From contig CAKOOM010000001.1 of the NCBI GenBank assembly GCA_934098395.1, forward strand, positions 421,493 through 485,492: 64,000 nucleotides of DNA. The letters are read 5' to 3'. The position numbers and the translations under genes were made by a program. Origin of the DNA: an uncultured Bacilli bacterium. Its GTDB lineage: Bacteria > Bacillota_I > Bacilli_A > RF39 > UBA660. The notes under the pieces were generated by a model. It was not told the origin of the DNA. It ran no database searches and saw nothing but the letters and a program-made list of their open reading frames with translations. This document shows, piece by piece, positions 184-33,259 of this stretch (positions are counted from its first letter, which is position 1; the number at the start of each line of letters is the position of its first letter).

Positions 184-272
184 ATTTTACCAAAAAATAT
201 TAATTTTCTATTAAATTTATTATTTCATTGAGTTTAGATTTATACATGTGTGAATATCTATTTAGTGTCATG

Positions 273-2283: not shown

Positions 2284-2392
2284 TTCATACTTCCTTTCTA
2301 TATTTTAAAAATACCTGTATTAGCATATTTTTAAGCATTTTTTTTGATTATCTTATAAACTATATATGCAATTAGTGCAAAAGAGAAAAATG

Positions 2393-2659: not shown

Positions 2660-2719
2660 TATAATAATTGCTATTATTATAATTATTAAAATCTTTTTTT
2701 CATTATACTCCCTTTTTAA

Positions 2720-3090: not shown

Positions 3091-3139
3091 CTTATTCCTC
3101 CTCTTTGTTAAATTATAGCATAAAAAAACAACTTTTTTT

Positions 3140-3161
3140 GTGTAAATTTGCACACTATAAT
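3140..3161 (+). promoter_or_regulatory. Operator-like near-palindrome GTGTAAATTTGCAC abutting a TATAAT box in the cI/cro divergent region
   Basis: The 14-bp palindrome at 3140-3153 has 6 of 7 symmetric pairs. TATAAT lies at 3156-3161, upstream of the Cro-like gene. No good -35 was seen. Confidence 0.3.
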
Positions 3162-3183
3162 GGGGTTAGTTAGGAGGGATAAG

Positions 3184-3417
3184 ATGCAAAATGCTATAGG
3201 AAAAGAATTGAAAATTATTAGAATAAGAAATAATTTAAGACTTGAAGATGTAGCTGATGATTTAGATATTAATCGAGAAACACTTAGAAGATATGAAAAT
3301 AATTCAAATGGATTATCGGTTGAAAGACTTGAAGAATTATTAAACTTTTATAAAGTAGATAAATCAATTTTTTTTGAAAACGTATGTGCAAATAAGCATG
3401 GTAAAAAAGAAAAATAG
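3184..3417 (+). CDS. XRE-family HTH protein (Cro-like), divergent from the cI-like pseudogene
   Basis: ATG 3184 lies 5 nt after AGGAGGG (3172-3178). MQNAIGKELKIIRIRNNLRLEDVADDLDINRETLRRYENN is a classic HTH_3 pattern. The track ORF starts earlier at a TTG (3148). Confidence 0.75.
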   Translation: MQNAIGKELKIIRIRNNLRLEDVADDLDINRETLRRYENNSNGLSVERLEELLNFYKVDKSIFFENVCANKHGKKEK

Positions 3418-3542
3418 GAAATAGAAATGTATGACGGCAAATATGAAAAAATATTGCTAATACTTTTATCAATACAATTAGTACTTGCAATATTTATAAT
3501 AATAGGAAGTATAGTAGCAATGATTTTAAAATTTAAAGGACT

Positions 3543-4076
3543 TTAACTAATTCTTTTAATTAGTTCTTGTATGGAATTAGCTATCACTTTTAGTTCATTA
3601 CCATTAATACTTTGTTTGGTGTAAGTAACACCATAATCTTGCTGAAGGTTAATTGTGAAAATTTCAGAATGTTTCTTTTTGCCACTTAAATAATCAATTT
3701 TAAAAGAAATAGCTTCGATTCCAGAACATTTGCTTCTAATAGGTAATTTATAAAATTGATTTGGTGCAATATAAGAATCGTTTAAATATTCTAAAGCTTT
3801 ATTAAGATTCAAGTCGCTAAGTTTATTGATACTTTCCTGATCATATGTTAACGATGTTATATGTGCGGTTGTATTACCACCGTTTTTGATAACTAAATAT
3901 TCAACAGGACTATTAATATTTATAACTTCTTTATACATCATAATAAATGCTTTTTTAGATGATTCAATTATTTGATTATTTTGAATCAAAACTATCACTA
4001 TTGAAATAGTAGAAATTATTGCTAATACACCAGAAGATATCGCAACCCATAATTGTATTGTATCACTTACTGTCAT
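3543..4076 (-). CDS. Hypothetical single-pass membrane protein (element cargo)
   Basis: 177-aa ORF with an N-terminal TM helix (LWVAISSGVLAIISTISIVIVLI) and a soluble domain of about 140 aa. I recognise no motif. Confidence 0.5.
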   Translation of the reverse strand: MTVSDTIQLWVAISSGVLAIISTISIVIVLIQNNQIIESSKKAFIMMYKEVININSPVEYLVIKNGGNTTAHITSLTYDQESINKLSDLNLNKALEYLNDSYIAPNQFYKLPIRSKCSGIEAISFKIDYLSGKKKHSEIFTINLQQDYGVTYTKQSINGNELKVIANSIQELIKRIS

Positions 4077-12268: not shown

Positions 12269-15200
12269 ATGAAGAAATATGTTAAGTATTTAATAATTAC
12301 TTTAGTAGTAGGAATAATAATTGCAATAGGTACTTATGCTTATTGGAGTTATGAAAGTAATAATAAGAAAAATATTTCTATTAGAACTAGTCGGGAATTA
12401 TCTAATTATATTATATATGATGAGGGTGAATCTAAGTTTACGGGTGAACTTAAGGTAGGAAGTAGTTATTTAGATGGGATACATACGACTATTTCTATTA
12501 AGAAAACGGCTGATGCGAGTAATTTAGAGTTAATGGCTACGGTTAATATGACAGTTAATGCAATTGGAGATAATATTAAAAATTCTTATGGACTTAAGTG
12601 GGCTATAACTAAGGGTGATAGTACAAGCACAGGAACATTATTAAATCAGGGCAATTTTTATGGTAAAAATAATGATGATGTAATTGAACTTAAAACAGGT
12701 ATTGAAGTAACTACGACAGAAGAAAAATATACGGTATGGATATGGATAGATGGTAGTGAGAATCCTGATCCGAAAATAGTGGGAGAAACACTGGATACGA
12801 GTGTTTGGACACAGGTAGATCAAATTCTTGATAATCGTTTTGAAGTTACGAGTATTAATAGTAATTATCAATTTATTAATGCTAGCGCAGTAAACACGAC
12901 GAAGAATATTGTGGCATATGCGGTTACAAACACAAGTAGTCAACCAAGCAGTTACACGAATTTAACAACACAGGAACAAGGCAATGTATATAATGTGGTT
13001 GATTATAAAGTAACAAGCACCGGAACATATTATGTGTGGTTTAAAGATAGTGCAGGAAGTACAGTAAATAAAAGTGTAGCAGTTTCTAAGATAGATACGA
13101 CACCACCAGTATGTACGTTTGGTAATTTTGAACCTTCTACGATAAAGAATGGTGAAACATCCGTAGTTGAATTGACTTGTGTGGATGAAGAAATTGATAT
13201 AAAGAGTAGTGATATAACTAGTTCTAGTATAACTCTTAATGGAAGTAGCGTAACGCTTAATAGTAATATAGAAAAAACAAGAATTACAAATGGATTTAAA
13301 TATAAGTTAACAGTAACTGGTACTTCAACAGATGGAGATACTTCGTTATCATTAAAGGCTGGTGTAGTAAATAACAAAGCTGGACTTAGCAATAGTACTC
13401 CTTCGAGCACACCAACAGTCAAAGTACAAAATTTAACGAGTGTTGCTATTCCAATTCAAAGTGGTACGCTTACATATAATAGTACAAGCCAGACGGTAAC
13501 TTGGTCTAATTATGATAGTTCAAAGATGACAGTATCAGGAACGACATCAGCGACGAATGCGGGAACATATAGTGCAACATTTACATTAAAAGATACGACA
13601 AAATATAAATGGCCTGATGGAACAAGCACAGCAAAGACAGTTAGTTGGACAATTAATAAAGCAGATTTAAGTGATGCAGTAATTGATGGTGTAGAAGATA
13701 AGACATATACGGGTTCGGCAATAACACAAAGCCCAACGGTTTATGTAAACATATTAAAAAATTATAATACATGTTATGCAAGTTGTATTAGAAATTCTGC
13801 AGAAGAATATCCTTGTGTAATACAATGTTCTTATACGGCGGTAAGTGGAACAGATTATACGATTAGTTATAGCAACAATATAAATGCTGGTACAGCTACG
13901 TTGACTATAACTGGTAAAGGTAATTTTACCGGAACTGCTTCCACAACTTTTACAATAAATAAAGCTAGTTTGACGGTTCCTAGCCAAAGTGGAACATTGA
14001 CTTATGATACATTGGAGCATTCACCAGCTTGGTCTAATTACAGCGATTCAGCAATGACAATATCTGGAACATCGTCTGCGACGGATGCGGGAACATATAA
14101 TGCAATATTTACATTAAAAAGCACAACAAATTATAAATGGTCAGACGGAACAACTGCGGCAAAGACGGTTAGTTGGAAGATTGAACGGTATGATATATCT
14201 AATTTAGGATTTGATATAAATCCATCGAGTTATACATATACGGGTTCGGCAATAACACCGCTACCAACAGCCACGGGTGAAATATTTGATGCAGATGGTT
14301 GGAATGTATGCTATTCAGCATGTGATCACTCAGGAGATTCGGTAGCATGTGGTGCTGCATGTGATAAAGAATTTACTTATATACCAGTAAAGGATACGGA
14401 TTATACATTAAGTTATAGTAATAATACAAATGTTGGTACAGCGACTGTGACTATAACAGGAAAGGGTAACTTTAACGGTAGTACTCAATTACCTTTTGAG
14501 ATAGTCTATAAAAAAGTAACGGTATATCAAAATATATTTGATGATTTTAAGGATTATTCAGTAAGTGGTAATAATACGACTATTTCATATGATGCTGGAA
14601 AAAATGAGTATACTTTTAATAACACTTCAACAAGTGATCCTTATGCAGAAATTAGTCAGAAAGCTTATTTGACCGCAAATACTACGTATACGATTCATGC
14701 AGATTTTAAAACTACCGATGGTACAAAAATAACTGGTTCTTCGAAAATTTTTCAAATTTTTTATAAAACACAAAGTGGTGCATATAGCGAGGCTAATAGT
14801 GTTAAACTTTCACCAAGTAGTAATACGGTAACTTTTAAACCAACTTCGACGGGTTATTATTATTTTAGATTTGATAATGATTATGGTAATAACATGATAG
14901 TTTATAATTTTAGTATTGGTTTTACTAAAGATACTACTTATGGTAAAACTTATGGTGACTTAACTTCAGGAAGTCAAATAGTAGGTAGTAATACAGAATT
15001 GTTCGTTGGATGGTATACGGAGACAAGTTATACCAATAAAGTTACTTCGACAACAATGGTTACAAATATAAATTCACATGTTTTATTTGCTAAATGGAAA
15101 TTATATGGTAAATTTAATTATTGGAATGGTTCAAGTATTGCTAGTACTTATAGTACATGTGAGTTAACAAGTGGTAGTACTTGTACATTATCTGTTCCAA

Positions 15201-17515
15201 GTGCTGTTAGCAGTAGTAAGCCTAAAAATAATTCTAGTTATGCAGGAGTATCTACGAGTACTTCTAGTATGACAGCTAGTTCACTAACTATTAGTAGGAA
15301 TCAAACGTATTATGCTTATTATAGTGCTACAATTTCAAATAAATATTATAAGGGAACTAACAATAGTAATGATTATGATCATCAAACTGATTGGGGAACT
15401 AGGAGTCTATATAAAAATGTATTTTTCACTAGTGGAAGTGCTTTAAGTTATGTTATTAGTGATAGCAAAACTGGTACAACAAATTTATCACATGGTACCG
15501 GTATGGGGGGAGCGGCATTTAAAGGATTTTCTAGTGATAAATTAAATTACATGACAATGGGAACTGCGGCTGAGTCAACAAATGCGGTTTTATATTCAGT
15601 TTATAATATTTGGTATAATGCTAGTAAATCGGCTTATTATAATAGTTTATCAACAGCAGTACAAGGTGCTACAGCAGGTAATACTTTAACACTTAATGCA
15701 TCTTATTTAGAGGATTATGAGAAAACAGTTATAAATAAGAAGATATATCTAGTTATATCAAGTGGAAAAACAGTTGAATTTAGTAATAATTTGGGTGATA
15801 TTCCAATTGCGATTAGAGACAGTGGCGGTACCATTACAGCTGGAGATTTATATTTATCTGGTACTGGTACACTTAAATCCAATAATAAAAGAACAATTTA
15901 TAATTATGGGGGAATATTACAGTGTGAGAGTGTAAATTTTACTGGTTCGGCAATACATATTTCTTCGATTAGTGGTACGGTATATTTAGGTACTAGTAGT
16001 GGAACGAATGGTTGTAGTATTACAAAGACTAGTACTACGAATAATCAATCTGCCGTGGTTGTTGGTGGCGGTACAGCATATATGTATGCAGGGTCAATAG
16101 ATAGTGCCGGTTATGGAATATACGTTCAAGACGCTGGTACTGTTAATGTGTATGGGGGTAGTATTACTTCGACAGATAGTGCAATTTATTCTGCAGCTGG
16201 AAGTTCGGGTTATATTCGTATTGGTAGAGCTTTTTCTGATGATAAAACTTTAAATCCGAATGGAATTTCTGACACAGCAAAAAATAGGTATTCTGGTTTG
16301 GGAAAAACAGCAAACGTTACTAATCCAAAAATTATAGTAGATGGAACTGGTAACCCTGCTATTAATATATATTCAACTTCCTCAAGTGCAAATAATGCTT
16401 ATTTGAGAATAAATCATGGTTATATTGAGGCAAAAAGTACAGTTGTTAGTATTTCTTCGAATGCTAAAAATACGGTTTACATAGATGGTGGAGCATTATA
16501 TTCATCTGGATCTCATGTTTATCATAATCAATCTACAAGTGTTATAACGGCTTTTACAGGTAGCGCTCATTTGTATTCAGACGGATATTCCGCAGTCAAT
16601 TCAGTTAATACACTTAGGATTAATACTAGTCTTAATGATGTATATAATGGAATAGAAGAATCGCGAAGTGATTGTTCTGATTCCGATAGTTCTGGTTTAG
16701 GTAGATATTATGGTACGTATATTATGAGTAAAAGTTCTTATGGAATTTATTCTTCTAATAATTCAGCAATTGGAGTATCTGTTGGAGATAGTACTTATAC
16801 GCAAGGTAGTAAAACTTGTGATAAATTTAAAAATGAGGGTGCTACGATAGCAAGCTATAAAGCTACGTTTATCGGTAATATTAATTTGTATTGGTATGCA
16901 GGATCGTCTTATCATAATTCGGCTGGTTCAACGAGTTATGCTGGTGATAACGTTACAAAGAAAACGGCTGCTACAACGCGATTACATTCAAAAAATAATG
17001 CAATTACTGCTACGACAATTACTCAAAGCTTTAATGGTACAAGTAGAAGCGTTAGTATTGATAGAAGAAGTTATCCATATCAAACTGAATTAACTAAGGC
17101 ATTTGGAAGTGAAGTTACTACTGTTACTAGAACATCTGGTACGTTATATGCTTGGCGTTCTGGTTCATCTTGTACAAGTCTTAGTAGTTGTGGAACTGGT
17201 AGTTGTAATAGTATTGGAGTTATTAAGTCTAATTGGAACATTTATGTTATATCAAATCATTCAACGTATTCAAATTTATATTATGCTTGGGTTCCGATAA
17301 CTTCGGATGCATGGAGCGATAAATATCCTGGTTATCATATTTTAGCAAAAGATGGAAATGCTGCTATATCTACTTGTTCTGGTTTATCAAAACCTATTAC
17401 TTTTAGCAGTTATGTAACAACAACTTATAATAAAAGAACTTATGCAAAAGTAATAATACCGTTAAAAAATGGTAGTACTTGTTATGTAAGCAGCTGTAGC
17501 AATTTACCTAATTAG
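12269..17515 (+). CDS. Giant (1748 aa) cell-surface protein with a TasA/SipW-like signal, Ig-like and MBG-like repeats, a Listeria-Bacteroides-type repeat and a beta-helix-like region
   Basis: Uninterrupted 5.2-kb ORF with SD GAGAGGTG. The N-terminal TM ends ..AIGTYAYWSYES. DTTPPVCTF begins an Ig-like module. TYTGSAIT...DYTISYSNNINAGTATLTITGKGNFTG repeats are present. ELFVGWYTETSYTN..LFAKW is Flg_new-like. A Gly/Ser/Thr-rich periodic region runs from about 15.7 to 16.7 kb. There is no C-terminal anchor. Confidence 0.85.
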   Translation: MKKYVKYLIITLVVGIIIAIGTYAYWSYESNNKKNISIRTSRELSNYIIYDEGESKFTGELKVGSSYLDGIHTTISIKKTADASNLELMATVNMTVNAIGDNIKNSYGLKWAITKGDSTSTGTLLNQGNFYGKNNDDVIELKTGIEVTTTEEKYTVWIWIDGSENPDPKIVGETLDTSVWTQVDQILDNRFEVTSINSNYQFINASAVNTTKNIVAYAVTNTSSQPSSYTNLTTQEQGNVYNVVDYKVTSTGTYYVWFKDSAGSTVNKSVAVSKIDTTPPVCTFGNFEPSTIKNGETSVVELTCVDEEIDIKSSDITSSSITLNGSSVTLNSNIEKTRITNGFKYKLTVTGTSTDGDTSLSLKAGVVNNKAGLSNSTPSSTPTVKVQNLTSVAIPIQSGTLTYNSTSQTVTWSNYDSSKMTVSGTTSATNAGTYSATFTLKDTTKYKWPDGTSTAKTVSWTINKADLSDAVIDGVEDKTYTGSAITQSPTVYVNILKNYNTCYASCIRNSAEEYPCVIQCSYTAVSGTDYTISYSNNINAGTATLTITGKGNFTGTASTTFTINKASLTVPSQSGTLTYDTLEHSPAWSNYSDSAMTISGTSSATDAGTYNAIFTLKSTTNYKWSDGTTAAKTVSWKIERYDISNLGFDINPSSYTYTGSAITPLPTATGEIFDADGWNVCYSACDHSGDSVACGAACDKEFTYIPVKDTDYTLSYSNNTNVGTATVTITGKGNFNGSTQLPFEIVYKKVTVYQNIFDDFKDYSVSGNNTTISYDAGKNEYTFNNTSTSDPYAEISQKAYLTANTTYTIHADFKTTDGTKITGSSKIFQIFYKTQSGAYSEANSVKLSPSSNTVTFKPTSTGYYYFRFDNDYGNNMIVYNFSIGFTKDTTYGKTYGDLTSGSQIVGSNTELFVGWYTETSYTNKVTSTTMVTNINSHVLFAKWKLYGKFNYWNGSSIASTYSTCELTSGSTCTLSVPSAVSSSKPKNNSSYAGVSTSTSSMTASSLTISRNQTYYAYYSATISNKYYKGTNNSNDYDHQTDWGTRSLYKNVFFTSGSALSYVISDSKTGTTNLSHGTGMGGAAFKGFSSDKLNYMTMGTAAESTNAVLYSVYNIWYNASKSAYYNSLSTAVQGATAGNTLTLNASYLEDYEKTVINKKIYLVISSGKTVEFSNNLGDIPIAIRDSGGTITAGDLYLSGTGTLKSNNKRTIYNYGGILQCESVNFTGSAIHISSISGTVYLGTSSGTNGCSITKTSTTNNQSAVVVGGGTAYMYAGSIDSAGYGIYVQDAGTVNVYGGSITSTDSAIYSAAGSSGYIRIGRAFSDDKTLNPNGISDTAKNRYSGLGKTANVTNPKIIVDGTGNPAINIYSTSSSANNAYLRINHGYIEAKSTVVSISSNAKNTVYIDGGALYSSGSHVYHNQSTSVITAFTGSAHLYSDGYSAVNSVNTLRINTSLNDVYNGIEESRSDCSDSDSSGLGRYYGTYIMSKSSYGIYSSNNSAIGVSVGDSTYTQGSKTCDKFKNEGATIASYKATFIGNINLYWYAGSSYHNSAGSTSYAGDNVTKKTAATTRLHSKNNAITATTITQSFNGTSRSVSIDRRSYPYQTELTKAFGSEVTTVTRTSGTLYAWRSGSSCTSLSSCGTGSCNSIGVIKSNWNIYVISNHSTYSNLYYAWVPITSDAWSDKYPGYHILAKDGNAAISTCSGLSKPITFSSYVTTTYNKRTYAKVIIPLKNGSTCYVSSCSNLPN
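13439..14509 (+). repeat. Tandem intragenic duplication (176 + 181 aa units) inside the giant gene
   Basis: Unit A (13439-13966) and unit B (13967-14509) align end to end: SGTLTY..WSNY..M T(V/I)SGT(T/S)SAT(N/D)AGTY...KTVSW.I... YTGSAIT ... DYT(I/L)SYSNN.N.GTAT.TITGKGNF.G. Confidence 0.8.
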
Positions 17516-18320: not shown

Positions 18321-18346
18321 AAAATCGTTATATGGAGGTGATTATC

Positions 18347-20623
18347 GTGGTTGAGACTAATTTACCAATATTATTTTTAAGAGATGTTGTTTTACTTCCT
18401 TATAACGAACTTAGAATAGAGATAAATACGGAAATTGAAAAGAATATATTAGATATTAGTGAGAGACGTCATGATAATCATATATTATTTATAAATTTAA
18501 TTGATGCTTTAGAAGAAAGACCAAGTGTTAGAAAATTACCTAAAATGGGTATTTTAGGTAAGATTAAAACTAAACTTGAATTACCTAACGGAATTGTTAG
18601 ATTAGTAGTTACGGGTATTGATAGAGTAGAAGTAATGAACTACTGTGAGAATGAAGATGGATCATATGAAGCCTTTGTTATACCTACGAAGGAGTATGAT
18701 TATAGTGAGTTAGAAGCTAATGCTTTAAGAAGAATATTAATTAAAGACTTAAATGATTATATAGAAATATCTTCATATATATCTAATAACGTACTTGGGA
18801 GAATTAGTGGAATTACTAGTTTATCTAGATTATCTGATATAGTATTAGCTGAGTTACCGATAGATTATTTAAGTAAGATTAGATATATTGATATGCCTAA
18901 TCCGATGAATAGAATTAAAGCTATTATTGAAGATTTGAATAGAGAGATGGAAACTGTTAAGTTAGAGAATGATATTGAGGATAATTTAAAGATTAAGTTA
19001 GATGAAGAAAATAAGAATTATATTTTAAAGGAAAAGATTAAATTAATTAAAGAAGAGATTAATGAAGTAGATATTAAAGATAATGATATAGAAAAATTAA
19101 ATAGTAAGATTAACGGAAGAGATTTTCCGGATTATATTAGTAATAGACTAAGAGATGAAATGAATAGATATGAGCTTACTTCACCAACAAGTCCAGAGAT
19201 GTCTATTATTAGAAATTATATTGATTGGTTGATAGATTTACCTTGGAATGATTCGACAATTGATAATATGGATATTGAAGATATTAGGAGGAAATTAGAT
19301 AATACTCATTTTGGACTTAATAGTGTTAAAGAAAGAATTGTTGAATATATAGCAGTTAGTAAGATAAGAAAGAAAAATAAGAGTCCTATTTTATGTTTGA
19401 TTGGTCCACCTGGAGTTGGTAAAACAACTTTAGCTAGATCTATTGCTCGGGCACTTGATAGAAAGTTTGTTAAGATTAGCGTGGGTGGTATTCATGATGA
19501 AGGAGAGATTGTTGGACATAGAAGGACTTATATTGGAGCTAATCCAGGTAAAATAATTCAGGGATTAAAGAGAGCTAAAGTTAATAATCCAGTATTTTTA
19601 ATAGATGAAGTAGATAAATTAACAAAGGATTATAAGGGAGATCCAGCTTCGGCTTTATTAGATGTACTTGATAGAGAACAAAATAGTGGTTTTTGTGATA
19701 ATTATATTGAAGAAGAGTTTGATTTATCAAATGTATTATTTATACTTACAGGAAATGATGAGGAGAGAATACCTGAAGCATTAAGAGATAGATTAGAAAT
19801 TATTAATTTATCTAGTTATACGATATCTGAGAAAGAGAATATAGCAGTTAATTATATTATTCCTAAATTAGAGGATGAATATGGAATAACAGTTAATATA
19901 ACGCATAGTAATATAAAAAATATTATACTTAATTATACGAGAGAAGCTGGTGTTAGGCAGTTAGAGAGATGTTTTGATGAAATATTTAGAAAGAGAATAA
20001 TTGAGGGTGGAGAGATTAAAAAGATAGATATTAAGGATTATTTAGGTAATTATAAATATCAAGAATTGTCTAATGAAAAGGATAGTTATGTTGGTATTAT
20101 TAATGCACTTGGGTATACTCCATATGGGGGATGTATTTTGAAGGTTAGTAGTTTACTTTATAAGGGTAAAGGTAATATTAAGTTAACAGGAATGCTTGGA
20201 GATGTTATTTTAGAGAGTGCTTATGTTGCTATTAGTTATATAAAAGCTAATAATATTATTATGGATATTGATAATAAGATATTTGATGAAAATGATTTTC
20301 ATATTCATTTTGAAGGTGGAGCAACCCATAAGGATGGTCCTTCAGCAGGAGTGGCAATAATTAGTGCATTAATTAGTTTGATTAAGAAAAAGCCAATAGA
20401 TAGTTCTATTAGTATGACGGGTGAAATTACATTAAGAGGCAAGGTATTACCTGTTGGTGGAATTAAAGAAAAAGTGCTTGCGGCTCTTAATAATAATATT
20501 AAAACAATATATATACCTATAGATAATAAAGAAGATGTAAGAGAGATACCGAGAGAGTTACTTAAGGGGATAAATATTAAATATATTAATAATTATTTAG
20601 AAATATATAATGACTTATTTTAA
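18347..20623 (+). CDS. lon: ATP-dependent Lon protease
   Basis: LON N-domain (LPILFLRDVVLLPY), Walker A GPPGVGKTT, and catalytic DGPSAGVA with a downstream Lys. GTG 18347 lies 6 nt after GGAGGTG; the track ORF begins at ATG 18332, which has no SD. Confidence 0.95.
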   Translation: MVETNLPILFLRDVVLLPYNELRIEINTEIEKNILDISERRHDNHILFINLIDALEERPSVRKLPKMGILGKIKTKLELPNGIVRLVVTGIDRVEVMNYCENEDGSYEAFVIPTKEYDYSELEANALRRILIKDLNDYIEISSYISNNVLGRISGITSLSRLSDIVLAELPIDYLSKIRYIDMPNPMNRIKAIIEDLNREMETVKLENDIEDNLKIKLDEENKNYILKEKIKLIKEEINEVDIKDNDIEKLNSKINGRDFPDYISNRLRDEMNRYELTSPTSPEMSIIRNYIDWLIDLPWNDSTIDNMDIEDIRRKLDNTHFGLNSVKERIVEYIAVSKIRKKNKSPILCLIGPPGVGKTTLARSIARALDRKFVKISVGGIHDEGEIVGHRRTYIGANPGKIIQGLKRAKVNNPVFLIDEVDKLTKDYKGDPASALLDVLDREQNSGFCDNYIEEEFDLSNVLFILTGNDEERIPEALRDRLEIINLSSYTISEKENIAVNYIIPKLEDEYGITVNITHSNIKNIILNYTREAGVRQLERCFDEIFRKRIIEGGEIKKIDIKDYLGNYKYQELSNEKDSYVGIINALGYTPYGGCILKVSSLLYKGKGNIKLTGMLGDVILESAYVAISYIKANNIIMDIDNKIFDENDFHIHFEGGATHKDGPSAGVAIISALISLIKKKPIDSSISMTGEITLRGKVLPVGGIKEKVLAALNNNIKTIYIPIDNKEDVREIPRELLKGINIKYINNYLEIYNDLF

Positions 20624-20651
20624 TCATATGAAAAAATTCATATGATTTTTT
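20623..20651 (+). terminator. Terminator after lon
   Basis: Perfect 10-bp stem ATCATATGAA/TTCATATGAT, 4-nt loop, T5. Confidence 0.8.
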
Positions 20652-20721
20652 AATTTTAAATTTAAAAATGGGTTGTTAATAATGTTAATTTATGTTATAT
20701 TTATATAGAGGATAGATAAGT

Positions 20722-21651
20722 ATGAAGAGAATATTATTGTTTTTATTTTTATTAATACCATTTAGTGTTTTTGCGGATACGGTTAAATTAACTTGTCCTG
20801 ATGAGATAGCTAGTGGTGAAGAATTTACTTGCTCGATAGAAGGAAATACAAATGGTATAATTATTTCAGTTGATATGAATGCAAGATTTGGAAGTAATTT
20901 AAAGATGATATCGTTTGTTCCTGATGGTAAATGGTCTGGAGACGGAGCTAGTGGATATATTCGATTATATACATATGTTGATGTTAATGAGAGTTTTAAA
21001 ATAGGAACTTTGAAATTAAGAAATGATAGCGGTAGTAATAACAGCGTTATACTTGACGAAATTAAATTTTATTATGATGATGATAGTTTCCTAGAATTAA
21101 ACTCAATAACTAAAAATATTAAGATTAAGAGTACTACCAATAGCAGTAATAGTAACAGTAATAGTAATAAGAGTGATACGAGTAGTGGAAATACAAAAGT
21201 AGATAATAATAGTGATAGTAAAAAAGATACTAAGAGTGATAATACAACAAATAAGAATGAAGATAATAATCAAGATAATGTAGATAGTACTGATAGTGAT
21301 GTTTATGGAAATGCTTATTTAGTAGATATTATAATTGGTAGTTATGATATACCATTTGAAAAAGATGTATATGAGTATGAGTTGGCTATTAAAGACGAGA
21401 GTAAACTTGATATAGAACCAGTTTTAATGGATAGTAGTTCAAAGTATTCAATAACGGGTAATAATAAATTAAAAAATGGGAGTGTTATTGAGATTAAAGT
21501 AACGGCTACGAATGGAGATACAGAGACTTATAAGATAAAAATAATTAAAGAGGAAAAAAGCAGTAATATATATAAAATAGTATTTATTGGAATAATAGGA
21601 ATACTTGTAATAATTAATATTATAAGAGTAGTAAGTAGGAGACGAAAATGA
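20722..21651 (+). CDS. Surface protein with signal peptide, cohesin-like domain, Ser/Asn/Asp linker, cadherin-like beta-sandwich and C-terminal TM anchor
   Basis: Signal MKRILLFLFLLIPFSVFA|D. VKLTCPDEIASGEEFTCSIEG...FKIGTLKLRN fits a cohesin-type pattern. NAYLVDIIIGSYDIPFEKDVYEYELAI...TATNGDTETYKIKIIK fits the cadherin-like pattern. The C-terminus is a TM helix followed by RRRK. Confidence 0.65.
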   Translation: MKRILLFLFLLIPFSVFADTVKLTCPDEIASGEEFTCSIEGNTNGIIISVDMNARFGSNLKMISFVPDGKWSGDGASGYIRLYTYVDVNESFKIGTLKLRNDSGSNNSVILDEIKFYYDDDSFLELNSITKNIKIKSTTNSSNSNSNSNKSDTSSGNTKVDNNSDSKKDTKSDNTTNKNEDNNQDNVDSTDSDVYGNAYLVDIIIGSYDIPFEKDVYEYELAIKDESKLDIEPVLMDSSSKYSITGNNKLKNGSVIEIKVTATNGDTETYKIKIIKEEKSSNIYKIVFIGIIGILVIINIIRVVSRRRK

Positions 21652-23279
21652 AGAAGATAATTGAAATGATTAAGAAGAATTATGTTATAAGTGCTGGTGT
21701 TTTATTATTAATATGTTTATTTGTAGGTGTTACGATATTTATAATAAATAAAGGTACAAGAGCATTAGATGAAGGTGTAACTAATAGTGTGGCTTTACGT
21801 TGCCCTGAGAAAGTAGCAATCGATGGTGAGGCAAAATGTGAAGTTATAGCTAATATAGTTGATAAGACTGTTATGTCAGTAAATGCTAACTATAATCTTC
21901 CTGAGGGAGTAACTGTTAGTGAATTTACAGTGAATACAGAATGTGCTGAAGGGGATTGTTTTGAAGAGTTTGCAAATACAGAGAATGGATTTGCAATGGC
22001 TAATTTGAATGGTATTAATAAAAGTACTTCTTTGGGAACTTTAACTCTTAAATTTAGTACTCCGGTAGTATCTAATAAAACATATGATATTGAATTTGTC
22101 AATGTTGAGTATAGTGTTGAAGCTGGTAGTGGTGAATATGAGATGTTAAGTTTAGAGAATACAAAGGCACAAGTTAGAACATTATCTGATGTTAATACGT
22201 TAGATAGTGTAGAAATAAATGGTACTTTTGATAAAGAATTTAGTAGTGATGTACTTGAATATAAAGTTACAGTTGAAAAAGATGTTGATAAGATTAAAAT
22301 AAATGCAAAAGCAAGTGATGAAAATGCAAAAATATCTGGTGATACTGAAGAAACTAGTTTACATTATGGTACCAATAGTTTAAAGATTATTGTAACAAGT
22401 GAAGACGGTAAGGAAAAAACGTATACATTTAATGTATATAGAAAATATGAATTTAATACAGATAGTTATATTTATAATAAAGATAAAAATGTATTATTTA
22501 CTGGTAGTGTTTATGATAATGATAAAATTATAGCTGGTTTGAAATTAGATGATAGTTTAAATAAAAAGATTAATAATGGTAAATTAGAAGTAATGTATGG
22601 CGAAGAAGTTATTAGTACAGTAGATTTGGCTAACTTTAAATATACAAATACAGTAAGTAATAAGATGCTTTATATTGATAAAGATACAACATATGAGACA
22701 TTAGTTAATAATTTAACTTTGAATAAAGTTAGTATTAAAGTAATTGATAGTAGTAAGCAAGAAGTTAATAGTGGTGTAATTAATGATAGTATGAAGATGG
22801 AAGTATATTACGAAGATACTTTATTAGATACATATACATTTACTGTTAGTTATTTGAAGTTAGATGATAGTTTAAATGTTAATGAAGAAAAGAAATTCTT
22901 TGAAAAACAAACAGCAGGTACTAAAATAGGCGAGTTAAAGAGTAAGATTAGTACTAGTGGAGAAGTTAATTATATTTCTAATGATGGCAATGCAGTAGAA
23001 GATAATGATATTATTAAGACTGGTGATAAAGTTAGTATTAATATAAATGGTACTAAAACTGAATATAAAGTGATAGTATTTGGTGATGTCACTGGTGATG
23101 GCGAAATAAGAAGCAACGATGTTGCAAAAGTTTATAGATTTATAAGAGGAAGAATATCTAGTGATGTGTTTGATGATTTATGTGTATCTGCAGGAGAAGT
23201 TACTGGTGATGGTGAAATAAGAAGCAACGATGTTGCAAAGATTTATAGATTCATAAGAGGAAGAATATCGTCTTTGTAA
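21648..23279 (+). CDS. Membrane-anchored or secreted protein with cohesin-like domain, cadherin-like beta-sandwich and a C-terminal duplicated dockerin
   Basis: ATGA overlap with the upstream stop. LRCPEKVAIDGEAKCEV.. is cohesin-like. LDSVEINGTFDKEFSSDVLEYKVTV...SEDGKEKTYTFNVYR is cadherin-like. The C-terminus carries GDVTGDGEIRSNDVAKVYRFIRGRIS twice (23091-23160 and 23202-23271), which is the dockerin EF-hand-like pattern. Confidence 0.75.
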   Translation: MKKIIEMIKKNYVISAGVLLLICLFVGVTIFIINKGTRALDEGVTNSVALRCPEKVAIDGEAKCEVIANIVDKTVMSVNANYNLPEGVTVSEFTVNTECAEGDCFEEFANTENGFAMANLNGINKSTSLGTLTLKFSTPVVSNKTYDIEFVNVEYSVEAGSGEYEMLSLENTKAQVRTLSDVNTLDSVEINGTFDKEFSSDVLEYKVTVEKDVDKIKINAKASDENAKISGDTEETSLHYGTNSLKIIVTSEDGKEKTYTFNVYRKYEFNTDSYIYNKDKNVLFTGSVYDNDKIIAGLKLDDSLNKKINNGKLEVMYGEEVISTVDLANFKYTNTVSNKMLYIDKDTTYETLVNNLTLNKVSIKVIDSSKQEVNSGVINDSMKMEVYYEDTLLDTYTFTVSYLKLDDSLNVNEEKKFFEKQTAGTKIGELKSKISTSGEVNYISNDGNAVEDNDIIKTGDKVSININGTKTEYKVIVFGDVTGDGEIRSNDVAKVYRFIRGRISSDVFDDLCVSAGEVTGDGEIRSNDVAKIYRFIRGRISSL

Positions 23280-23286
23280 TATTAGA

Positions 23287-23315
23287 TTTACAAAACAAAA
23301 AATAAATGCTATAAT
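23287..23315 (+). promoter_or_regulatory. Promoter for the third cohesin-like gene
   Basis: TTTACA (23287-23292), 17 nt, TGcTATAAT (TATAAT at 23310-23315). Confidence 0.45.
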
Positions 23316-23341
23316 TTATTTATATGATAGTGAGGTATATA

Positions 23342-24517
23342 ATGAAAAGAAAAATATTTATATTGGGTATTATGTTGTTAATTCTTTCTCCGCTTAGAAT
23401 TTATGCGGCTGAACAGGTTAGTATGGTGTGTGATAAGACAACGGCTAAACCTGGAGATCAAATTAGTTGTGACATTAAGCTCAGTACAACAATTGAAGTT
23501 ACTGCTGTTGAAGGTAATATTGCAACAAGTGATAATTTGGAATTTGTTAGTGTAGTTCCTATGAGTGATTTTGTTTTTCAAGGAGGAGCTATTGATGAAA
23601 AAGAAAAAAAAATTACTCTTACGCGTGAAGTTGTAATTAAAGATGAATTTGTTGCTGGTAAAGTTATTTTAAAGGTTAAGAGTGATGCAAAGAGTGGCGA
23701 TGCAACGATTGAATTGACAAATGCAAGCATTGGTAATGATAAGGGTAAAATGTATGATATTACTAGTAATAAAACTACGATTAAGATAGAAGTTCCTGTA
23801 GTTAAGGGACTTAAGAGTCTTAATATTAGTAAGGGTTATATAAAGGATAGTTCTTTCAGTTCTTCAAGAGAAGGTTATACTGTAATTATTGAAGGTAATA
23901 CTTTTGGACTTAGTATGACTGCTAATAATTCTAGTGATAATATAGTTGTTACTGATGGTAAGGGTAATACAATAAATGATGTTAATAATATAAAATTTGA
24001 TCCAAATGATAGTGGATTAATGCTTCTTTATATTGGTGTTGGAAGTGGAGATACGGCATTTAAGTATACACTTTCAGTAAGTAAAGATGTAGATGATGAT
24101 TATCGTGGTTATTTATCAAAACTTGTTATTGGTGGCGTAAATGTTGAACTTACAAGAGGAAAAACAGAATATACAATTTATTTAGATAATATTAGTAGTT
24201 ATGATATATCAGCTTATTTAGAGAATTCAGAAAATTTTATGATTGAAAATGGTGGAATTTCTAAAGGAAATGGTTCATGGGTTAATATAAAGATTGTTCC
24301 TAAGGATCCATCAAGCGGAGCTAAATCAATTACTTATACGATTAATGTGCTAAAGAAAGGTTCTAGTTCTAATGGTACAAATAATAGTAGTAATAATGCT
24401 AGTAAATCTCCACAAACGGGTGATATATCAATGTTCTTTATGGCTTTGATACTTATATCATCACTTGTTGGTAGTTTGTATTTGTATAAGAAAAATTTAG
24501 TTGATTTAAAGAAATAA
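23342..24517 (+). CDS. Sortase-anchored surface protein with cohesin-like domain, two cadherin-like beta-sandwich domains and an SPQTG sorting signal
   Basis: ATG 23342 lies 6 nt after GTGAGG. Signal ..LRIYA|AEQ. MVCDKTTAKPGDQISCDIKL...GDATIELTNASIG is cohesin-like. The C-terminus is SPQTGD, then a hydrophobic stretch (ISMFFMALILISSLVGSLYLY), then KK. Confidence 0.75.
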   Translation: MKRKIFILGIMLLILSPLRIYAAEQVSMVCDKTTAKPGDQISCDIKLSTTIEVTAVEGNIATSDNLEFVSVVPMSDFVFQGGAIDEKEKKITLTREVVIKDEFVAGKVILKVKSDAKSGDATIELTNASIGNDKGKMYDITSNKTTIKIEVPVVKGLKSLNISKGYIKDSSFSSSREGYTVIIEGNTFGLSMTANNSSDNIVVTDGKGNTINDVNNIKFDPNDSGLMLLYIGVGSGDTAFKYTLSVSKDVDDDYRGYLSKLVIGGVNVELTRGKTEYTIYLDNISSYDISAYLENSENFMIENGGISKGNGSWVNIKIVPKDPSSGAKSITYTINVLKKGSSSNGTNNSSNNASKSPQTGDISMFFMALILISSLVGSLYLYKKNLVDLKK

Positions 24518-24520: not shown

Positions 24521-24549
24521 GAAAAAGAACAAAAAGTTGTTCTTTTTTT
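24521..24549 (+). terminator. Terminator after the cohesin-like cluster
   Basis: GAAAAAGAACAA/TTGTTCTTTTT stem, 4-nt loop, T run. Confidence 0.7.
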
Positions 24550-24571
24550 CATATTATATAATGGTGATAAG

Positions 24572-25381
24572 ATGAAATTGTTCTTAAAGGGATTGATTAT
24601 AGGGATAGGTAAGATTATACCAGGAGTATCTGGAGCAATGTTGGCAATTAATTTTAATGTTTATGAAAAGGCAATTGAAGCAGTTAGTAATTTTTTTTAT
24701 GATTGGAAGAATAATTTAAAGTTTCTTTTATTACTTGGAAGTGGAATATTTATATCGATAGTATTATGTAGTAATATAGTTATATATTTTCTTAGTAATT
24801 ATATGTTTGTTACTTTGATGTTGTTTATTGGATTAATAATGGGAGGAACTTATAATTTTTCTCGAAAGATAGTATATAATAAAAAGAGTATATTTTTAAT
24901 TTTTTTGATTATGGTATTGTTTTTATTAATTAGTTTAGGAAATACGAATTATAAATATGTTCTTAGTTATAAATTTATGGATAATATTATGTTTTTTTTA
25001 GGAGGTATTATTGAGATAGTAGCATCAATTGTACCAGGAATTAGTGGGACTGCGCTTTTAATGGTTATGGGGATTTATGATATAGTAATGGAGATGATTA
25101 GTAATATATTTGATGTTAACTATGTAATTAATAATATTAATTTGTATATTAGTTATGGTGTTGGGATGGGTGTTTCATTTATTTTAACTGTTACTTTGAT
25201 AAATTATTTGATAAAAAGATATAGAAATATAACATATACAGTTATTTTAGGGTTGTGTGTTTCAGCAATTATTTTTTTGATTATTATGGCTTTTGGAGAA
25301 AAGATTGAAATTATTGAATTTATACTGGGAATGATGAGTATGATGGTTGGATTACTTATTAGTTGTATATTTGATAAATAA
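24572..25381 (+). CDS. DUF368 family polytopic membrane protein
   Basis: There are two internal repeats, each with the IPGVSG/VPGISG motif (GKIIPGVSGAMLA and IVASIVPGISGTALL), and about 8 TMs. The family has been implicated in undecaprenyl-phosphate recycling. Confidence 0.75.
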   Translation: MKLFLKGLIIGIGKIIPGVSGAMLAINFNVYEKAIEAVSNFFYDWKNNLKFLLLLGSGIFISIVLCSNIVIYFLSNYMFVTLMLFIGLIMGGTYNFSRKIVYNKKSIFLIFLIMVLFLLISLGNTNYKYVLSYKFMDNIMFFLGGIIEIVASIVPGISGTALLMVMGIYDIVMEMISNIFDVNYVINNINLYISYGVGMGVSFILTVTLINYLIKRYRNITYTVILGLCVSAIIFLIIMAFGEKIEIIEFILGMMSMMVGLLISCIFDK

Positions 25382-30508: not shown

Positions 30509-33259
30509 ATGATGAGAAAGTTAAATAGTAGAGGATTTACGTTAACTGAGTTATTAGCTACTTTAGCAGTATTATCATTAGTTAGTACAATAGTGATATA
30601 TGTAGCGATTAATGTTGTTAATTCTGCTAAGGATAAGAGTTATTTAGTAACAAGTAACAATGTAGAAAAGGCTGCAGTTAGCTATTTGGAAGAAAATAAT
30701 GATAAGATTCATTTTGTTAAATATGATGATAATATTGAATATCAATGCGTAACTGTCCAAAATTTAATAGATACGAATTATTTTGATAAAGATGTATTGA
30801 ATTCGAAGATAAGTAAAGATAAGACTATAAGTGATAGTGATTATATTTATATTGAAAGAGATAAAGGAAGTAAGGCTATTAAAAATAGTAAATTAGTTAC
30901 TGATAGTGATAGTGATAGTGAATATAGTACAATATGTGGTAATTATAATTCTAGATTGGATGGAGATATAGAATTTAAGATACCTGGAGGATATGCAAAA
31001 GAAAAGGATGTATTAATTAGGTATTGTTTATACAATGTTACTAATTATAAAGAAATTAAATATTTATATAATTATGTACCTAGTGATAAAAGTAGTTTTA
31101 TTAAAGAATATGATGAAGATAATTGCTTTGTTAAAAATATTAAAATACTTGATAATGGTGAATTAACGGCAGAGGTTAAGGATACGGATATTAAGAAGAG
31201 TACTTCAATAACTGGTATTGATAATACGGCACCAGTTATTAAGATAGAACCAAATGGGGATAATACTTATACGAAGAATAAGACGATAAATATTAATATA
31301 AGTGATGATTTAAGTGGAATAAGTAGTGATAGTACAATAAAATATGGATTTAGTAAATCTAAGAGTGAAGAACCTGGTAGTTATAAAGAGGTTAATGTAA
31401 GTACTGGTAATGTAAAGGTTATAGAGAGTAGTTTAACTGGAGAGTATTACTTATGGGTTAAACCTAGTGTTAAAGATAATATAGGAAATGAGAATAATGG
31501 TACGTTAGTAAGTAATGTATATAAATTTGATAATACAGCACCAAGTATACCTACATATATAGCTAAATATAGAGATGGTAGTGGTAGTTATACATCTGGA
31601 AGTAATGCAAATAAAGAGGTAGTAACTGAGATATCTACGACTGAAGCTGATAGTGGAATAGAAGGAATATATTATTCGAAAGATAAGAATAGTAAGACTA
31701 AATTTAACTTTGGAGTATCAGCGTTAGCACAAAATGGTAGTACATGGAGTGGTACAGAATCATGGGATTTTAAAAACGGAAGAAATGATAGTTATTACTT
31801 TATGGCATGTGATAAGGCTGGAAACTGTTCTGATTGGTCTAGTATATTTAATATAAAATATTTAACTTCAGTATATATAAAATATAATGCTAATGGTGGC
31901 AGTATGGCAAGTAGTCATGGAAGTGAATATGAGGTAAATTCAGATGGAATGATTACTAAGAATGGTAGTATATTAACAACAAAAATTAATTATCAGGGAA
32001 AATTAGGTAGTAATGGTTTGTATAATACTAAGAATTCAAATGCAGTTAATTTAACTAATGGAAGTTATTCAATATTTAGTGGTCGTGAGTGGTGTACTAT
32101 TTCAAATGGTAGTGGAAAATGTTATGATGAGGATGCTCAGTATAGTGCGAGTGATTTTTGTGATATATCAAGTAATGATTGTGAAGTAACTTTATATGCG
32201 AACTGGTTAAGTTATTATTGCTCATATACGAGAAGGAGCTATCCGACTAGATCAGAGGCGGTTAGAGCATGTACAGTGACATCAATTAAGAATGTGGAAA
32301 CTACAACAACGACTACATATAGTTGTCCAGCTGGATATACGTGTAGTGGAGGAACATGTACAAGTACAAGTACTTGTCAAAAGACGGTAGATGGAACGAT
32401 TACAACAAAATATTATTGTTCTCATAATGGTAAATACCAAGATAGTTCTACATGTAGTTATATGAGTGGTGGTTATTATGATGATCATTATGATTTAAAT
32501 TGTGTTAATGGGTCTAACTGTACTTCCAGTTGCCCTAGTGGTAGTACATTGAAGAACGGAAAATGTTATAAATATGATAAAACTTCTTGTGGATCAGGAT
32601 GGAGTGCGACAGCAAATGGATATTGTGCTTATACATGCGGTTATTCACATGGTTTGCAATATTCTCACTGTACTGTTAATTATAAAACTTGTCAAAGTAA
32701 TCCGGCTAACTATTCTTGTACTTCTACTTGTGGAAGTGGTGATGACAGTAATTGTAAATCTGGATTTTATATTAGCGGTAGTAGTCCACATGCAAATTGT
32801 AAAACAGATTGGAAATATTATACTTGTTCTAAGAATGCAACAAAGAGTTGTAATAAAGTATATAAAGCAGGTAGTAAGAGCGATACGAAGACTTATGGTA
32901 GTTGTGCTTCTGGGTATACAGCATCTAGAGGAACTGGTTGTACTACGAAAATTACTAAAGATGGTAAAGAGTATTGTGATACTAGAACATATTGGAATGG
33001 TAGAAGTTGTACGTCTTCTTACTCTGGAGGTTCTACGAATAGAGTGGATATGAAATGTACTAAAACTGGAGAATTAAGATATTACTGTAGTCTTACAGGT
33101 AAATATACGACTTCTAAACCATCTTGTACAAATACAGAAAAAGGAAATTTGATTAGTACAACAACTACATCTTATTCTTGTCCGACAGGATATGATTCTA
33201 CAGGTAATTTGAATCAAAATAGTGTATGTACTAAAACTGTTGTTTATAATGTGTATTAA
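30509..33259 (+). CDS. Giant (916 aa) modular protein with a prepilin-type (class III) N-terminal signal, Ig-like modules, a B-repeat-like module and a Cys-rich C-terminal region
   Basis: MMRKLNSRG|FTLTELLATLAVLSLVSTIVIYVAI matches the G-FTLxE prepilin motif followed by a hydrophobic helix. DNTAPVIKIEPNG.. and DNTAPSIPTY.. begin Ig-like modules. VYIKYNANGGSM...EVTLYANW is an InlB/Listeria-Bacteroides-like repeat. The last roughly 345 aa hold about 32 Cys by hand count. Confidence 0.85.
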   Translation: MMRKLNSRGFTLTELLATLAVLSLVSTIVIYVAINVVNSAKDKSYLVTSNNVEKAAVSYLEENNDKIHFVKYDDNIEYQCVTVQNLIDTNYFDKDVLNSKISKDKTISDSDYIYIERDKGSKAIKNSKLVTDSDSDSEYSTICGNYNSRLDGDIEFKIPGGYAKEKDVLIRYCLYNVTNYKEIKYLYNYVPSDKSSFIKEYDEDNCFVKNIKILDNGELTAEVKDTDIKKSTSITGIDNTAPVIKIEPNGDNTYTKNKTININISDDLSGISSDSTIKYGFSKSKSEEPGSYKEVNVSTGNVKVIESSLTGEYYLWVKPSVKDNIGNENNGTLVSNVYKFDNTAPSIPTYIAKYRDGSGSYTSGSNANKEVVTEISTTEADSGIEGIYYSKDKNSKTKFNFGVSALAQNGSTWSGTESWDFKNGRNDSYYFMACDKAGNCSDWSSIFNIKYLTSVYIKYNANGGSMASSHGSEYEVNSDGMITKNGSILTTKINYQGKLGSNGLYNTKNSNAVNLTNGSYSIFSGREWCTISNGSGKCYDEDAQYSASDFCDISSNDCEVTLYANWLSYYCSYTRRSYPTRSEAVRACTVTSIKNVETTTTTTYSCPAGYTCSGGTCTSTSTCQKTVDGTITTKYYCSHNGKYQDSSTCSYMSGGYYDDHYDLNCVNGSNCTSSCPSGSTLKNGKCYKYDKTSCGSGWSATANGYCAYTCGYSHGLQYSHCTVNYKTCQSNPANYSCTSTCGSGDDSNCKSGFYISGSSPHANCKTDWKYYTCSKNATKSCNKVYKAGSKSDTKTYGSCASGYTASRGTGCTTKITKDGKEYCDTRTYWNGRSCTSSYSGGSTNRVDMKCTKTGELRYYCSLTGKYTTSKPSCTNTEKGNLISTTTTSYSCPTGYDSTGNLNQNSVCTKTVVYNVY

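Follow-up and report, generated by a model that had tools for sequence, protein, structure and literature searches.

What do three neighboring surface proteins, each with a binding module at its N-terminus and none joined to an enzyme, hold at the surface of a bacterium? The question is posed by the genes at positions 20722 to 24517 of a 64,000-nucleotide (nt) stretch of DNA from an uncultured bacterium (contig CAKOOM010000001.1 of assembly GCA_934098395.1), the whole of which we call the window. A sequence-only reading had seen in these genes a triad of cohesin-bearing proteins with a single dockerin, and had interpreted them as a self-contained, enzyme-free scaffold. Our analysis favors, at a probability of about 0.6, a three-gene operon that supplies the scaffoldins, or structural proteins, of a divergent system of cohesin-dockerin surface assembly, with its cargo encoded elsewhere. 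As first described, the three open reading frames (ORFs) are consecutive and co-directional and lie where they had been placed; coordinates here and below are window positions on the plus strand unless noted. Gene 1 (20722-21651) encodes P1, a protein of 309 amino acids (aa) with a signal peptide, a cohesin, a Ser/Asn/Asp-rich linker, a cadherin-like module, a transmembrane helix and a terminal RRRK. Gene 2 (21648-23279) encodes P2 (543 aa), which consists of an N-terminal hydrophobic leader or anchor, a cohesin, a cadherin-like module, a β-rich middle region and a dockerin. The product of gene 3 (23342-24517, from its probable start) is P3 (391 aa), with a signal peptide, a cohesin, two cadherin-like modules, a Ser/Asn-rich linker and an SPQTG motif.

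The N-terminal module of all three ORFs, about 120 to 135 aa long, is a cohesin by both fold and profile. The modules occupy P1 residues 19-137 (Coh1; 20776-21132), P2 residues 46-181 (Coh2; 21783-22190) and P3 residues 24-152 (Coh3; 23411-23797). They are 23-26% identical to one another in pairwise alignments, and Coh1 and Coh2 score 115.8 and 92.8 bits, respectively, with the family profile. We collected cohesin relatives into a 39-member alignment (A2) and searched its profile against the PDB, where cohesins ranked first (5n5p, E 7e-6), with about 20 more among the matches (including 2xdh, 5m2s, 1qzn, 1g1k and 1aoh); 14 of the 39 members match Pfam Cohesin individually, the best at E 2e-10. 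Matches of the same profile to acetylcholine-binding proteins were rejected as spurious, as they span profile positions 3-62 only and none is among the top 50 structures found by Foldseek. An AlphaFold2 (AF2) model of P3 residues 24-152 is all-beta, with a predicted local distance difference test score (pLDDT) of 95.7; with this model as query against the PDB, Foldseek returned cohesins almost throughout the top 50 matches (E down to 5e-9; template modeling [TM] scores 0.62-0.80). The highest TM-scores, 0.76-0.80, are to non-cellulosomal cohesins of Clostridium perfringens. As modeled, the P3 module adopts the nine-stranded β-sandwich (jelly-roll) fold of cohesins, and the P1 and P2 modules align to it. 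The concern raised with the original proposal, that the modules might not score as cohesins or might fold differently, was not borne out, since AF2 with Foldseek and the profile search both returned cohesins. On this profile and fold evidence, Coh1, Coh2 and Coh3 are cohesins overlooked by ordinary annotation.

The three modules also share the conserved cysteine pair noticed in the sequence-only reading (Cys25/Cys37 in P1, Cys52/Cys64 in P2 and Cys30/Cys43 in P3). Among 83 distinct related modules, both cysteines are present in 62, neither in 20 and one of them in a single case; because the two are kept or lost together, the pair fits a disulfide bond. Coh2 contains, in addition, an insertion with the sequence TECAEGDC (21936-21959; P2 residues 97-104) and a second cysteine pair, Cys99/Cys104, which is absent from Coh1 and Coh3. 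Throughout the P2 family Cys99 is invariant, and the insertion repeatedly contains two cysteines spaced a few residues from each other.

The counterpart of a cohesin, a dockerin, ends P2 (23082-23276). The sequence-only reading had described it as duplicated, and the repeat was found: two 77-nt copies (23082-23158 and 23193-23269), spaced 111 nt and 91% identical (7 mismatches), encode GDVTGDGEIRSNDVAKVYRFIRGRIS and GEVTGDGEIRSNDVAKIYRFIRGRIS. Each segment consists of a loop, D/E-V-T-G-D-G-E-I-R-S-N-D, followed by the helix VAK(V/I)YRFIRGR, and the segments are 37 aa apart. P2 therefore has the tandem segments of about 22 residues, an EF-hand-like calcium loop and then a helix, by which type I dockerins are recognized. 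In a phmmer search against PDB dockerins, P2 (E 5.4e-5) was nearest the adaptor dockerin of Acetivibrio cellulolyticus ScaB, followed by other type I dockerins, and the P2 orthologues P0003-P0005 carry precomputed matches to Pfam Dockerin_1 (PF00404). Across orthologues, loop positions 9 and 10 change jointly in both segments (RS, MI, KI, LI, KV). Joint change of this kind is expected of a dockerin with two equivalent binding faces.

The dockerin is preceded by the β-rich middle region of P2 (residues 269-473; 22452-23066). An AF2 model of P2 residues 267-543 has a mean pLDDT of 63, and values of 70-90 over model residues ~70-210 cover much of this region, for which Foldseek gave only weak immunoglobulin (Ig)-like matches (TM about 0.2). 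In relatives, and in cargo proteins too, the dockerin follows a conserved module that corresponds to the last ~75 aa of this region, with the junction motif '..Y.[IL]SV.GD' between module and dockerin.

At its other end P2 begins with the hydrophobic segment reported in the sequence-only reading, 22 residues long (residues 12-33) and followed by NKGTRALDEG (together 21681-21776); to judge by its sequence, it could be either a membrane anchor or a long cleavable leader. Directly after the hydrophobic segment, relatives carry the motif [KRH]-G-T-[FY]-[SA]-[LIV]-(D/E), at a site that corresponds to 21747-21776 of the window (P2 residues 34-43). Of 45 related proteins that end in a single dockerin, 20 contain the motif [KRH]-G-T-[FY]-[SA]-[LIV], enzyme cargo among them (carriers include P0084, P0089, P0093, P0097 and P0148). 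P1 and P3, whose signal peptides are of the ordinary kind, lack the motif, which may mark a dedicated site for processing or sorting. A prepilin-type leader was ruled out for P2, as the KGT[FY]S[LI] motif comes after the hydrophobic segment and not before it. The motif bears a loose resemblance to SipW-type signal peptides; an NCBIfam scan returned nothing beyond noise for P1 and P2, and no SipW-type signal-peptide model on the P2 leader.

Between the binding modules and the surface, all three proteins contain cadherin-like modules, in agreement with the sequence-only reading. That of P2 (residues 187-266; 22191-22451) is a direct match to PF12733 (46.1 bits against a cut-off of 24.2; E 7e-12). 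An iterative search from this domain recovered one module in P1 (residues 202-277; 21325-21552; E 7e-24) and two in P3 (residues 157-248 and 258-339; 23810-24358; E 1e-9 and 3e-16), and PF12733 is itself matched by 2 of 9 P1 orthologues and 7 of 18 P3 orthologues.

The anchors of P1 and P3 are likewise as first described. P1 ends in a transmembrane helix (residues 286-304) and an RRRK tail (together 21577-21648), which are kept in its orthologues. The cell-wall sorting signal of P3 (24407-24514) comprises SPQTG (24407-24421), a 21-aa hydrophobic stretch and the basic tail KKNLVDLKK; TIGR01167 scores above its cut-off (16.9 against 15.9), the Pfam LPXTG signal is weak, and P3 orthologues carry NPQTG, NPKTG, NPSTG or NPETG at this place. 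We take SPQTG to fit the (S/P)PXTG motif reported for the sortase of Clostridioides difficile. A sortase gene lies in the window on the minus strand (58798-59913; 372 aa, LTLSTC active-site motif; Pfam Sortase E 4.5e-12, 46.3 bits against 26.6) among housekeeping genes (RNase J, a glycosyltransferase, LigA), and its product is a candidate for the enzyme that anchors P3. P3 thus combines the pentapeptide, the hydrophobic stretch and the positive tail of a sortase substrate with a sortase encoded in the same genome. A Pfam scan detected no S-layer homology (SLH) module on P1, P2 or P3.

The arrangement of the genes is that of an operon. Genes 1 and 2 overlap by an ATGA (21648-21651), with GGAG 7 nt upstream, which bears out the translational coupling that had been proposed. 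The ORF of gene 3 is listed from 23324; its start is most likely 23342 (MKRKIF), because GAGG stands 6 nt upstream and the orthologue P0018 begins there. The triad is flanked by lon (18332-20623) and by a DUF368/VCA0040-like gene (24572-25381), and its neighbors encode Lon, the DUF368/VCA0040-like protein, Tmk, an Impact_N protein and UvrC. A hairpin with a T-run, read from the sequence, follows the lon stop codon (20625-20653; TCATATGAaaaaaTTCATATGAtttttt) and another follows gene 3 (24521-24550; AAAAAGAACAAaaagTTGTTCTTTTTTT); they are the likely terminators of lon and of the operon, respectively, and with a hairpin and T-run after lon and after P3 the triad looks like a separate transcription unit. 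The lon hairpin was not listed by an automatic terminator scan, its stem being AT-rich. Gene 3 had also been credited with a promoter of its own. The site itself, TTTACA-17-TGcTATAAT (23287-23315), is present and is the region's best match to the consensus (11/12); the case for a separate promoter consists of this match, promoter-like sites are no more frequent in this AT-rich region than in shuffled sequence, and genes 2 and 3 overlap in three other species.

The operon is a conserved core-genome feature of a low-GC lineage and not a one-off. The order Lon, P1, P2, P3, VCA0040-like, Tmk is kept in at least four species (L001, L003/L004, L005/L006 and L010). They range from a close strain whose P2 is 88% identical to that of the window (L001) to a distant species with 33% identity (L003/L004), the single locus that a scan of a genome collection returned, in a metagenome-assembled genome labeled "uncultured Clostridia bacterium"; L005/L006 is a further species with the same gene order from Lon to Tmk, and L010 has the same synteny with a short P2 of 346 aa. 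The host would by this evidence be a gut bacterium of an uncultured Clostridia lineage of ~27% GC. The P1 orthologue family numbers 22 proteins. A dockerin profile searched against 1.84 billion representative proteins gave 5800 matches, and among the best 150 of these the P2 architecture (leader, cohesin, C-terminal dockerin) occurs in ~25 clusters at 50% identity, as a form of either ~310 aa or ~545 aa.

What sets the binding modules apart from the rest of the locus is their variation between strains. The flanks of the triad are ~99% identical in nucleotide sequence between the window and L001, and the synonymous divergence (dS) of Lon is 0.036. Inside the triad, divergence rises in peaks at Coh2 (71% aa identity, dS 0.38), at Coh3 (66%, dS 0.31), which is the most strain-variable part of the locus, and at the dockerin (91%, dS 0.33), where loop positions 9-10 are changed in both segments. 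The second cadherin module of P3 forms a further peak, Coh1 is less divergent (90% identity), and the stalk regions between the peaks are 97-100% identical. Three more strains gave the same ranking, and every strain seen differs from the others in its alleles of the dockerin and of Coh3. Such elevated dS, confined to short blocks, suggests that alleles were exchanged by recombination and not altered in place.

Within Coh3 the variation sits on strands b3, b5 and b6: over five close orthologues, strands 8-3-6-5 average 0.42 identity to the window protein and strands 9-1-2-7-4 average 0.73 (p 7e-5). The variable strands correspond to the putative dockerin-binding face, which in canonical cohesins is formed by 8-3-6-5. 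Between L001 and a further strain, L039, Coh2 is 99% identical, the dockerin 67% and Coh3 54%, a pattern that weakly argues for a dockerin directed at Coh3 or Coh1 rather than at its own Coh2. The P2 of L039 (508 aa; 462-1988 in L039) has a single-segment dockerin, and the missing 37 aa equal the 111-nt repeat spacing; this half-dockerin looks like the outcome of recombination between the near-identical copies.

A six-frame hidden Markov model scan of the 64-kb window found three cohesins and one dockerin, all of them in the triad, and no catalytic module is present in or adjoining the locus, whose neighbors are housekeeping genes. To this extent the proposal of an enzyme-free scaffold held; that the scaffold is also self-contained could not be established from 64 kb, and in relatives dockerins of this subtype sit on enzymes as well as on other proteins. 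The dockerin subtype of P2, GD.TG.G.I.[IV].DV.K.Y[RQ]..KG.., ends proteins of similarly AT-rich organisms, often together with the same leader motif, and the domains on these proteins are GH43, Peptidase_C1, NlpC/P60, Flg_new, Big_2/3, leucine-rich repeats (LRR), DUF11 and SLH. Two cargo proteins, P0097 and P0111, are encoded on contigs of 2.6 and 4.0 kb without gene context.

In one relative, L010, a cargo gene is physically linked to the triad, 2.4 kb downstream. It encodes a 690-aa dockerin-tagged autolysin (13759-15831), in which SH3_3 and a GH73-like glucosaminidase (PDB SagB/AtlE, E 4e-19) are combined with a cadherin-like module and with a type I dockerin that Pfam scores as canonical (52 bits). 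This dockerin, GDVNGDGKIAATDYVAIKNHIM, differs in type from the dockerin of the L010 P2, and two types in one locus are as expected for a two-tier assembly in which cargo docks onto the adaptor and the adaptor onto an anchor. From these relatives, a cargo-bearing system appears more likely than an enzyme-free one. With an autolysin as the only triad-linked cargo seen among relatives, the system may organize cell-wall enzymes and adhesins rather than fiber-degrading enzymes. The product of the gene after the autolysin (15841-17247 in L010) has a signal peptide, cadherin-like repeats and a transmembrane helix at its C-terminus. Metagenome contigs of ~25% GC encode proteins that combine a GH5 cellulase with DUF285/LRR (1432-3807 in L011, 384-2990 in L013 and 1088-3700 in L016); there the related dockerin stands near the N-terminus (residues ~105-185) and not at the C-terminus.

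In the assembly that we favor, P1 would be a membrane-anchored scaffoldin with one distal cohesin, and P3 a sortase-anchored wall scaffoldin, also with one distal cohesin, in a role like that of ScaE in Ruminococcus flavefaciens or Sca2 in Ruminococcus bromii. P2 would act as the adaptor, with one cohesin and a C-terminal dual-segment dockerin that we expect to dock with calcium onto the cohesin of P3, P1 or both. The cadherin-like modules would serve as stalks, and the cohesins and the dockerin as the strain-variable parts. The cohesins left free, above all that of P2, would then hold dockerin-tagged proteins encoded elsewhere in the genome, which in relatives are autolysins, proteases, glycoside hydrolases and LRR or Ig-type adhesins. 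The outcome would be a general device for surface display and anchoring, not a cellulose-degrading machine.

Several results weigh against this interpretation. Pfam Cohesin (PF00963) gave zero matches on P1, P2 and P3 even at E<=1, and Dockerin_1 stayed below threshold on P2 (21.2 bits against a cut-off of 22.9). In the AF2 model the dockerin part has a pLDDT below 50, with helices at both expected places at low confidence. The assignment of the Coh3 strands came from DSSP of the model and from analogy to a Clostridium thermocellum cohesin, not from coordinates. Coh3 differs in every strain pair, so that co-variation of dockerin and Coh3 is indistinguishable from independent diversification (n=5), and the half-dockerin of L039 implies either that the dual segment is not strictly required or that this allele is defective. 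A dockerin other than that of P2 was found neither in the 64-kb window nor within 10 kb of the triad in L001, L003/L004 and L005/L006, and it is for want of one in the window or near the triads of L001, L003 and L005 that cargo in the window's own genome is assumed.

These last counts agree with a closed triad, in which the P2 dockerin is the sole one in the genome and the three proteins bind only each other, as a structural or adhesive lattice without cargo. The three cohesins, one dockerin and lack of a nearby enzyme in the window, repeated within 10 kb in L001, L003 and L005, suit this account, as do the housekeeping neighborhood, the conservation across species and the stalk-like cadherin modules on all three proteins. 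We nevertheless judge it unlikely: the visible part of the genome is 64 kb only, the dockerin subtype and leader motif of P2 recur on enzymes and adhesin-like proteins of similarly AT-rich organisms, the dockerin-tagged autolysin of L010 adjoins the syntenic block, and one dockerin for three cohesins leaves two sites idle. The presence of both cohesin and dockerin on P2 opens another route, by which P2 dockerins bind the cohesins of other P2 molecules head-to-tail, in fibers based on P1 or P3, or bind cohesins of neighboring cells. R. bromii Amy4 offers a documented case of self-recognition (PMC4611034); should the N-terminal segment of P2 be an anchor, P2 would be held at the end opposite to that of P1 and P3, with its dockerin distal; and the cohesins and dockerin are hypervariable between near-identical strains, so that in either case the strain-specific alleles would lead to strain-specific adhesion. 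The near-identity of Coh2 in L001 and L039 beside dockerins only 67% identical speaks against tight coupling of dockerin and Coh2, evidence for polymerization is lacking, and phage or immune pressure on exposed tips explains the hypervariability equally well, which leaves this route quite improbable. We give no more credence to its most specific form, in which the triad is a strain-specific self-recognition structure whose distal P2 dockerin clasps P3 or P1 cohesins on the same or neighboring cells, or chains P2 into non-covalent fibers, and whose alleles, by a lock-and-key code of identity, restrict aggregation to kin. The cohesin and dockerin alleles, diversifying together, would then persist as mosaic cassettes in ~99% identical genomes, and cohesin-dockerin pairs would serve bacterial social recognition and not enzyme display.

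The cohesin-fold modules might alternatively be adhesin tips for ligands other than dockerins (host or dietary glycans, proteins), on independent fibrillar adhesins, with the P2 dockerin in another role or none. Many dockerin-free relatives do combine a signal peptide, a cohesin-like module, two to five cadherin-like repeats and a transmembrane helix (P0007-P0017, P0039, P0057-P0061), a hypervariable tip domain is seen in many adhesins, and the CLIPPER adhesin domain 9ifr was matched (Foldseek rank 39; E 5.7e-5 in the profile search). This explanation is improbable all the same: the dockerin and the three cohesins have stayed together in a single operon in at least four species, proteins of cohesin-plus-dockerin architecture are a large family, and the top structural matches are true dockerin-binding cohesins. 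Least probable is an ordinary cellulosome, in which the triad would supply the anchoring and adaptor scaffoldins of a fiber degrader rich in dockerin-bearing glycoside hydrolases. Low-GC metagenome contigs (L007, L011, L013, L016) do encode GH5 and GH43 proteins whose dockerins are related, and some record names, by name only, hint at ruminant gut samples; but those contigs are not assignable to the triad lineage, and the one cargo gene linked to a triad encodes a peptidoglycan hydrolase. No dockerin-bearing glycoside hydrolase was found in the 64-kb window and no carbohydrate-binding module (CBM) by Pfam on P1-P3, and no multi-cohesin primary scaffoldin was seen: each protein has one cohesin, where a primary scaffoldin combines several with a cellulose-binding module. 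By this measure the triad is not a cellulosome in the strict sense.

The display system that we prefer has close precedents. Non-cellulosomal cohesin-dockerin assembly is already documented in R. bromii, where Sca2 combines a single cohesin with a sortase signal, the amylase Amy4 combines a cohesin with a dockerin that recognizes that cohesin, and dockerins occur on peptidases and LRR proteins as well (PMC4611034). P3 resembles Sca2 and ScaE of R. flavefaciens as a wall anchor with a single cohesin and a C-terminal sortase signal, P2 resembles Amy4 in uniting a cohesin and a C-terminal dockerin in one protein, and the cargo types of triad relatives are similar to the R. bromii dockerin proteins, including peptidases and LRR proteins, in a scheme of general surface anchoring (PMC4611034). 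The two components of R. bromii-type display, a sortase-anchored single-cohesin scaffoldin and a cohesin-dockerin protein, are thus present in the window; cargo was seen in relatives only. Unlike Amy4, P2 has no catalytic module, and the spacers of the triad are cadherin-like. The triad differs from both Ruminococcus systems, further, in that its cohesins bear the conserved cysteine pair and go undetected by Pfam, that all three scaffoldins are encoded in one operon at a fixed housekeeping position, and that its host is apparently the ~27% GC uncultured Clostridia lineage and not a Ruminococcus.

P1 has a parallel in the transmembrane-anchored single-cohesin scaffoldins described for Ruminococcus in 2026 in a report that also found Pfam-invisible cohesin families by structure prediction (PMC13463774): both have a C-terminal transmembrane anchor and one cohesin, and in both cases cohesins that retain the fold escape annotation. 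The species treated in that report have many dockerin-bearing glycoside hydrolases or amylases, whereas the triad set is minimal (three cohesins, one dockerin) and syntenic; cadherin-like spacers and the cysteine pair go unmentioned in its text. A very small system encoded by adjacent genes is also known from Cellulosilyticum lentocellum, whose ClcC and ClcD contribute one cohesin and one dockerin to a complex reported to enhance cellulase activity (PMC13487519). The triad locus, by contrast, is enzyme-free, with three cohesins and explicit surface anchors.

The structurally nearest cohesins, those of C. perfringens (PDB 2jh2, 2vo8 and 2w1n), are likewise compact and act outside cellulose degradation; they are 16-18% identical to the triad module and, according to the PDB titles, belong to glycoside hydrolases (GH33, GH84C), whereas the triad cohesins belong to non-catalytic anchored proteins. 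On the dockerin side, the likeness in sequence is to the ScaB adaptor dockerin of A. cellulolyticus, known in complex with the ScaC cohesin (PDB 4uyq, 4uyp). An adaptor that plugs its dockerin into an anchoring cohesin is common to the classical scaffoldins of C. thermocellum and A. cellulolyticus; their counterparts here are anchored by a transmembrane helix and a sortase signal, and no SLH module, CBM or multi-cohesin primary scaffoldin was found. By analogy, then, the triad appears closest to the anchoring and adaptor scaffoldins of Ruminococcus and would work in the manner of R. bromii-type general surface display, not as a new machine.

Distinct features of the triad are its host lineage, the cadherin-like stalks, the cysteine pair and the combination of a membrane anchor, an adaptor and a wall anchor in a single syntenic operon, together with scaffoldins free of enzymes and CBMs and the strain-level hypervariability of the binding modules. 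A literature search for a combined cohesin, dockerin, cadherin-like and sortase architecture found nothing relevant. The range of cohesin-dockerin assembly may extend far past Ruminococcus and the classical cellulolytic clostridia, here to a very AT-rich lineage whose cohesins go undetected in standard annotation. The cassette is minimal and fixed at three genes, with three anchoring solutions side by side. Its binding modules, which change fastest between near-identical strains, offer a natural allele series for the evolution of specificity and possibly new orthogonal pairs for protein engineering.

The window as a whole has a GC content of 24-33% and a strongly positive GC skew, about +0.4 to +0.58 in most 2-kb windows, which drops or reverses only at 1-4000 and at 50-54 kb. 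The skew-reversed stretches hold minus-strand ORFs (for example an MMPL gene, 50102-53890), and almost all other genes are on the plus strand. A 1748-aa ORF (12269-17515) without a Pfam match is conserved beside the triad region in L001; its part at ~15.0-17.4 kb is hypervariable (73-92% nucleotide identity versus ~99% background between the window and L001), and its product is probably another exposed surface protein. Two genes downstream of the triad (30509-33259 and 33746-36376) encode proteins of 916 and 876 aa with an N-terminal prepilin N-methylation motif (Pfam N_methyl E 2.6e-5 and 3.5e-6, respectively), and the region of the 876-aa protein aligns with L001 only as a separate, much weaker BLAST piece (79% identity overall; 62-92% per 200-nt window).

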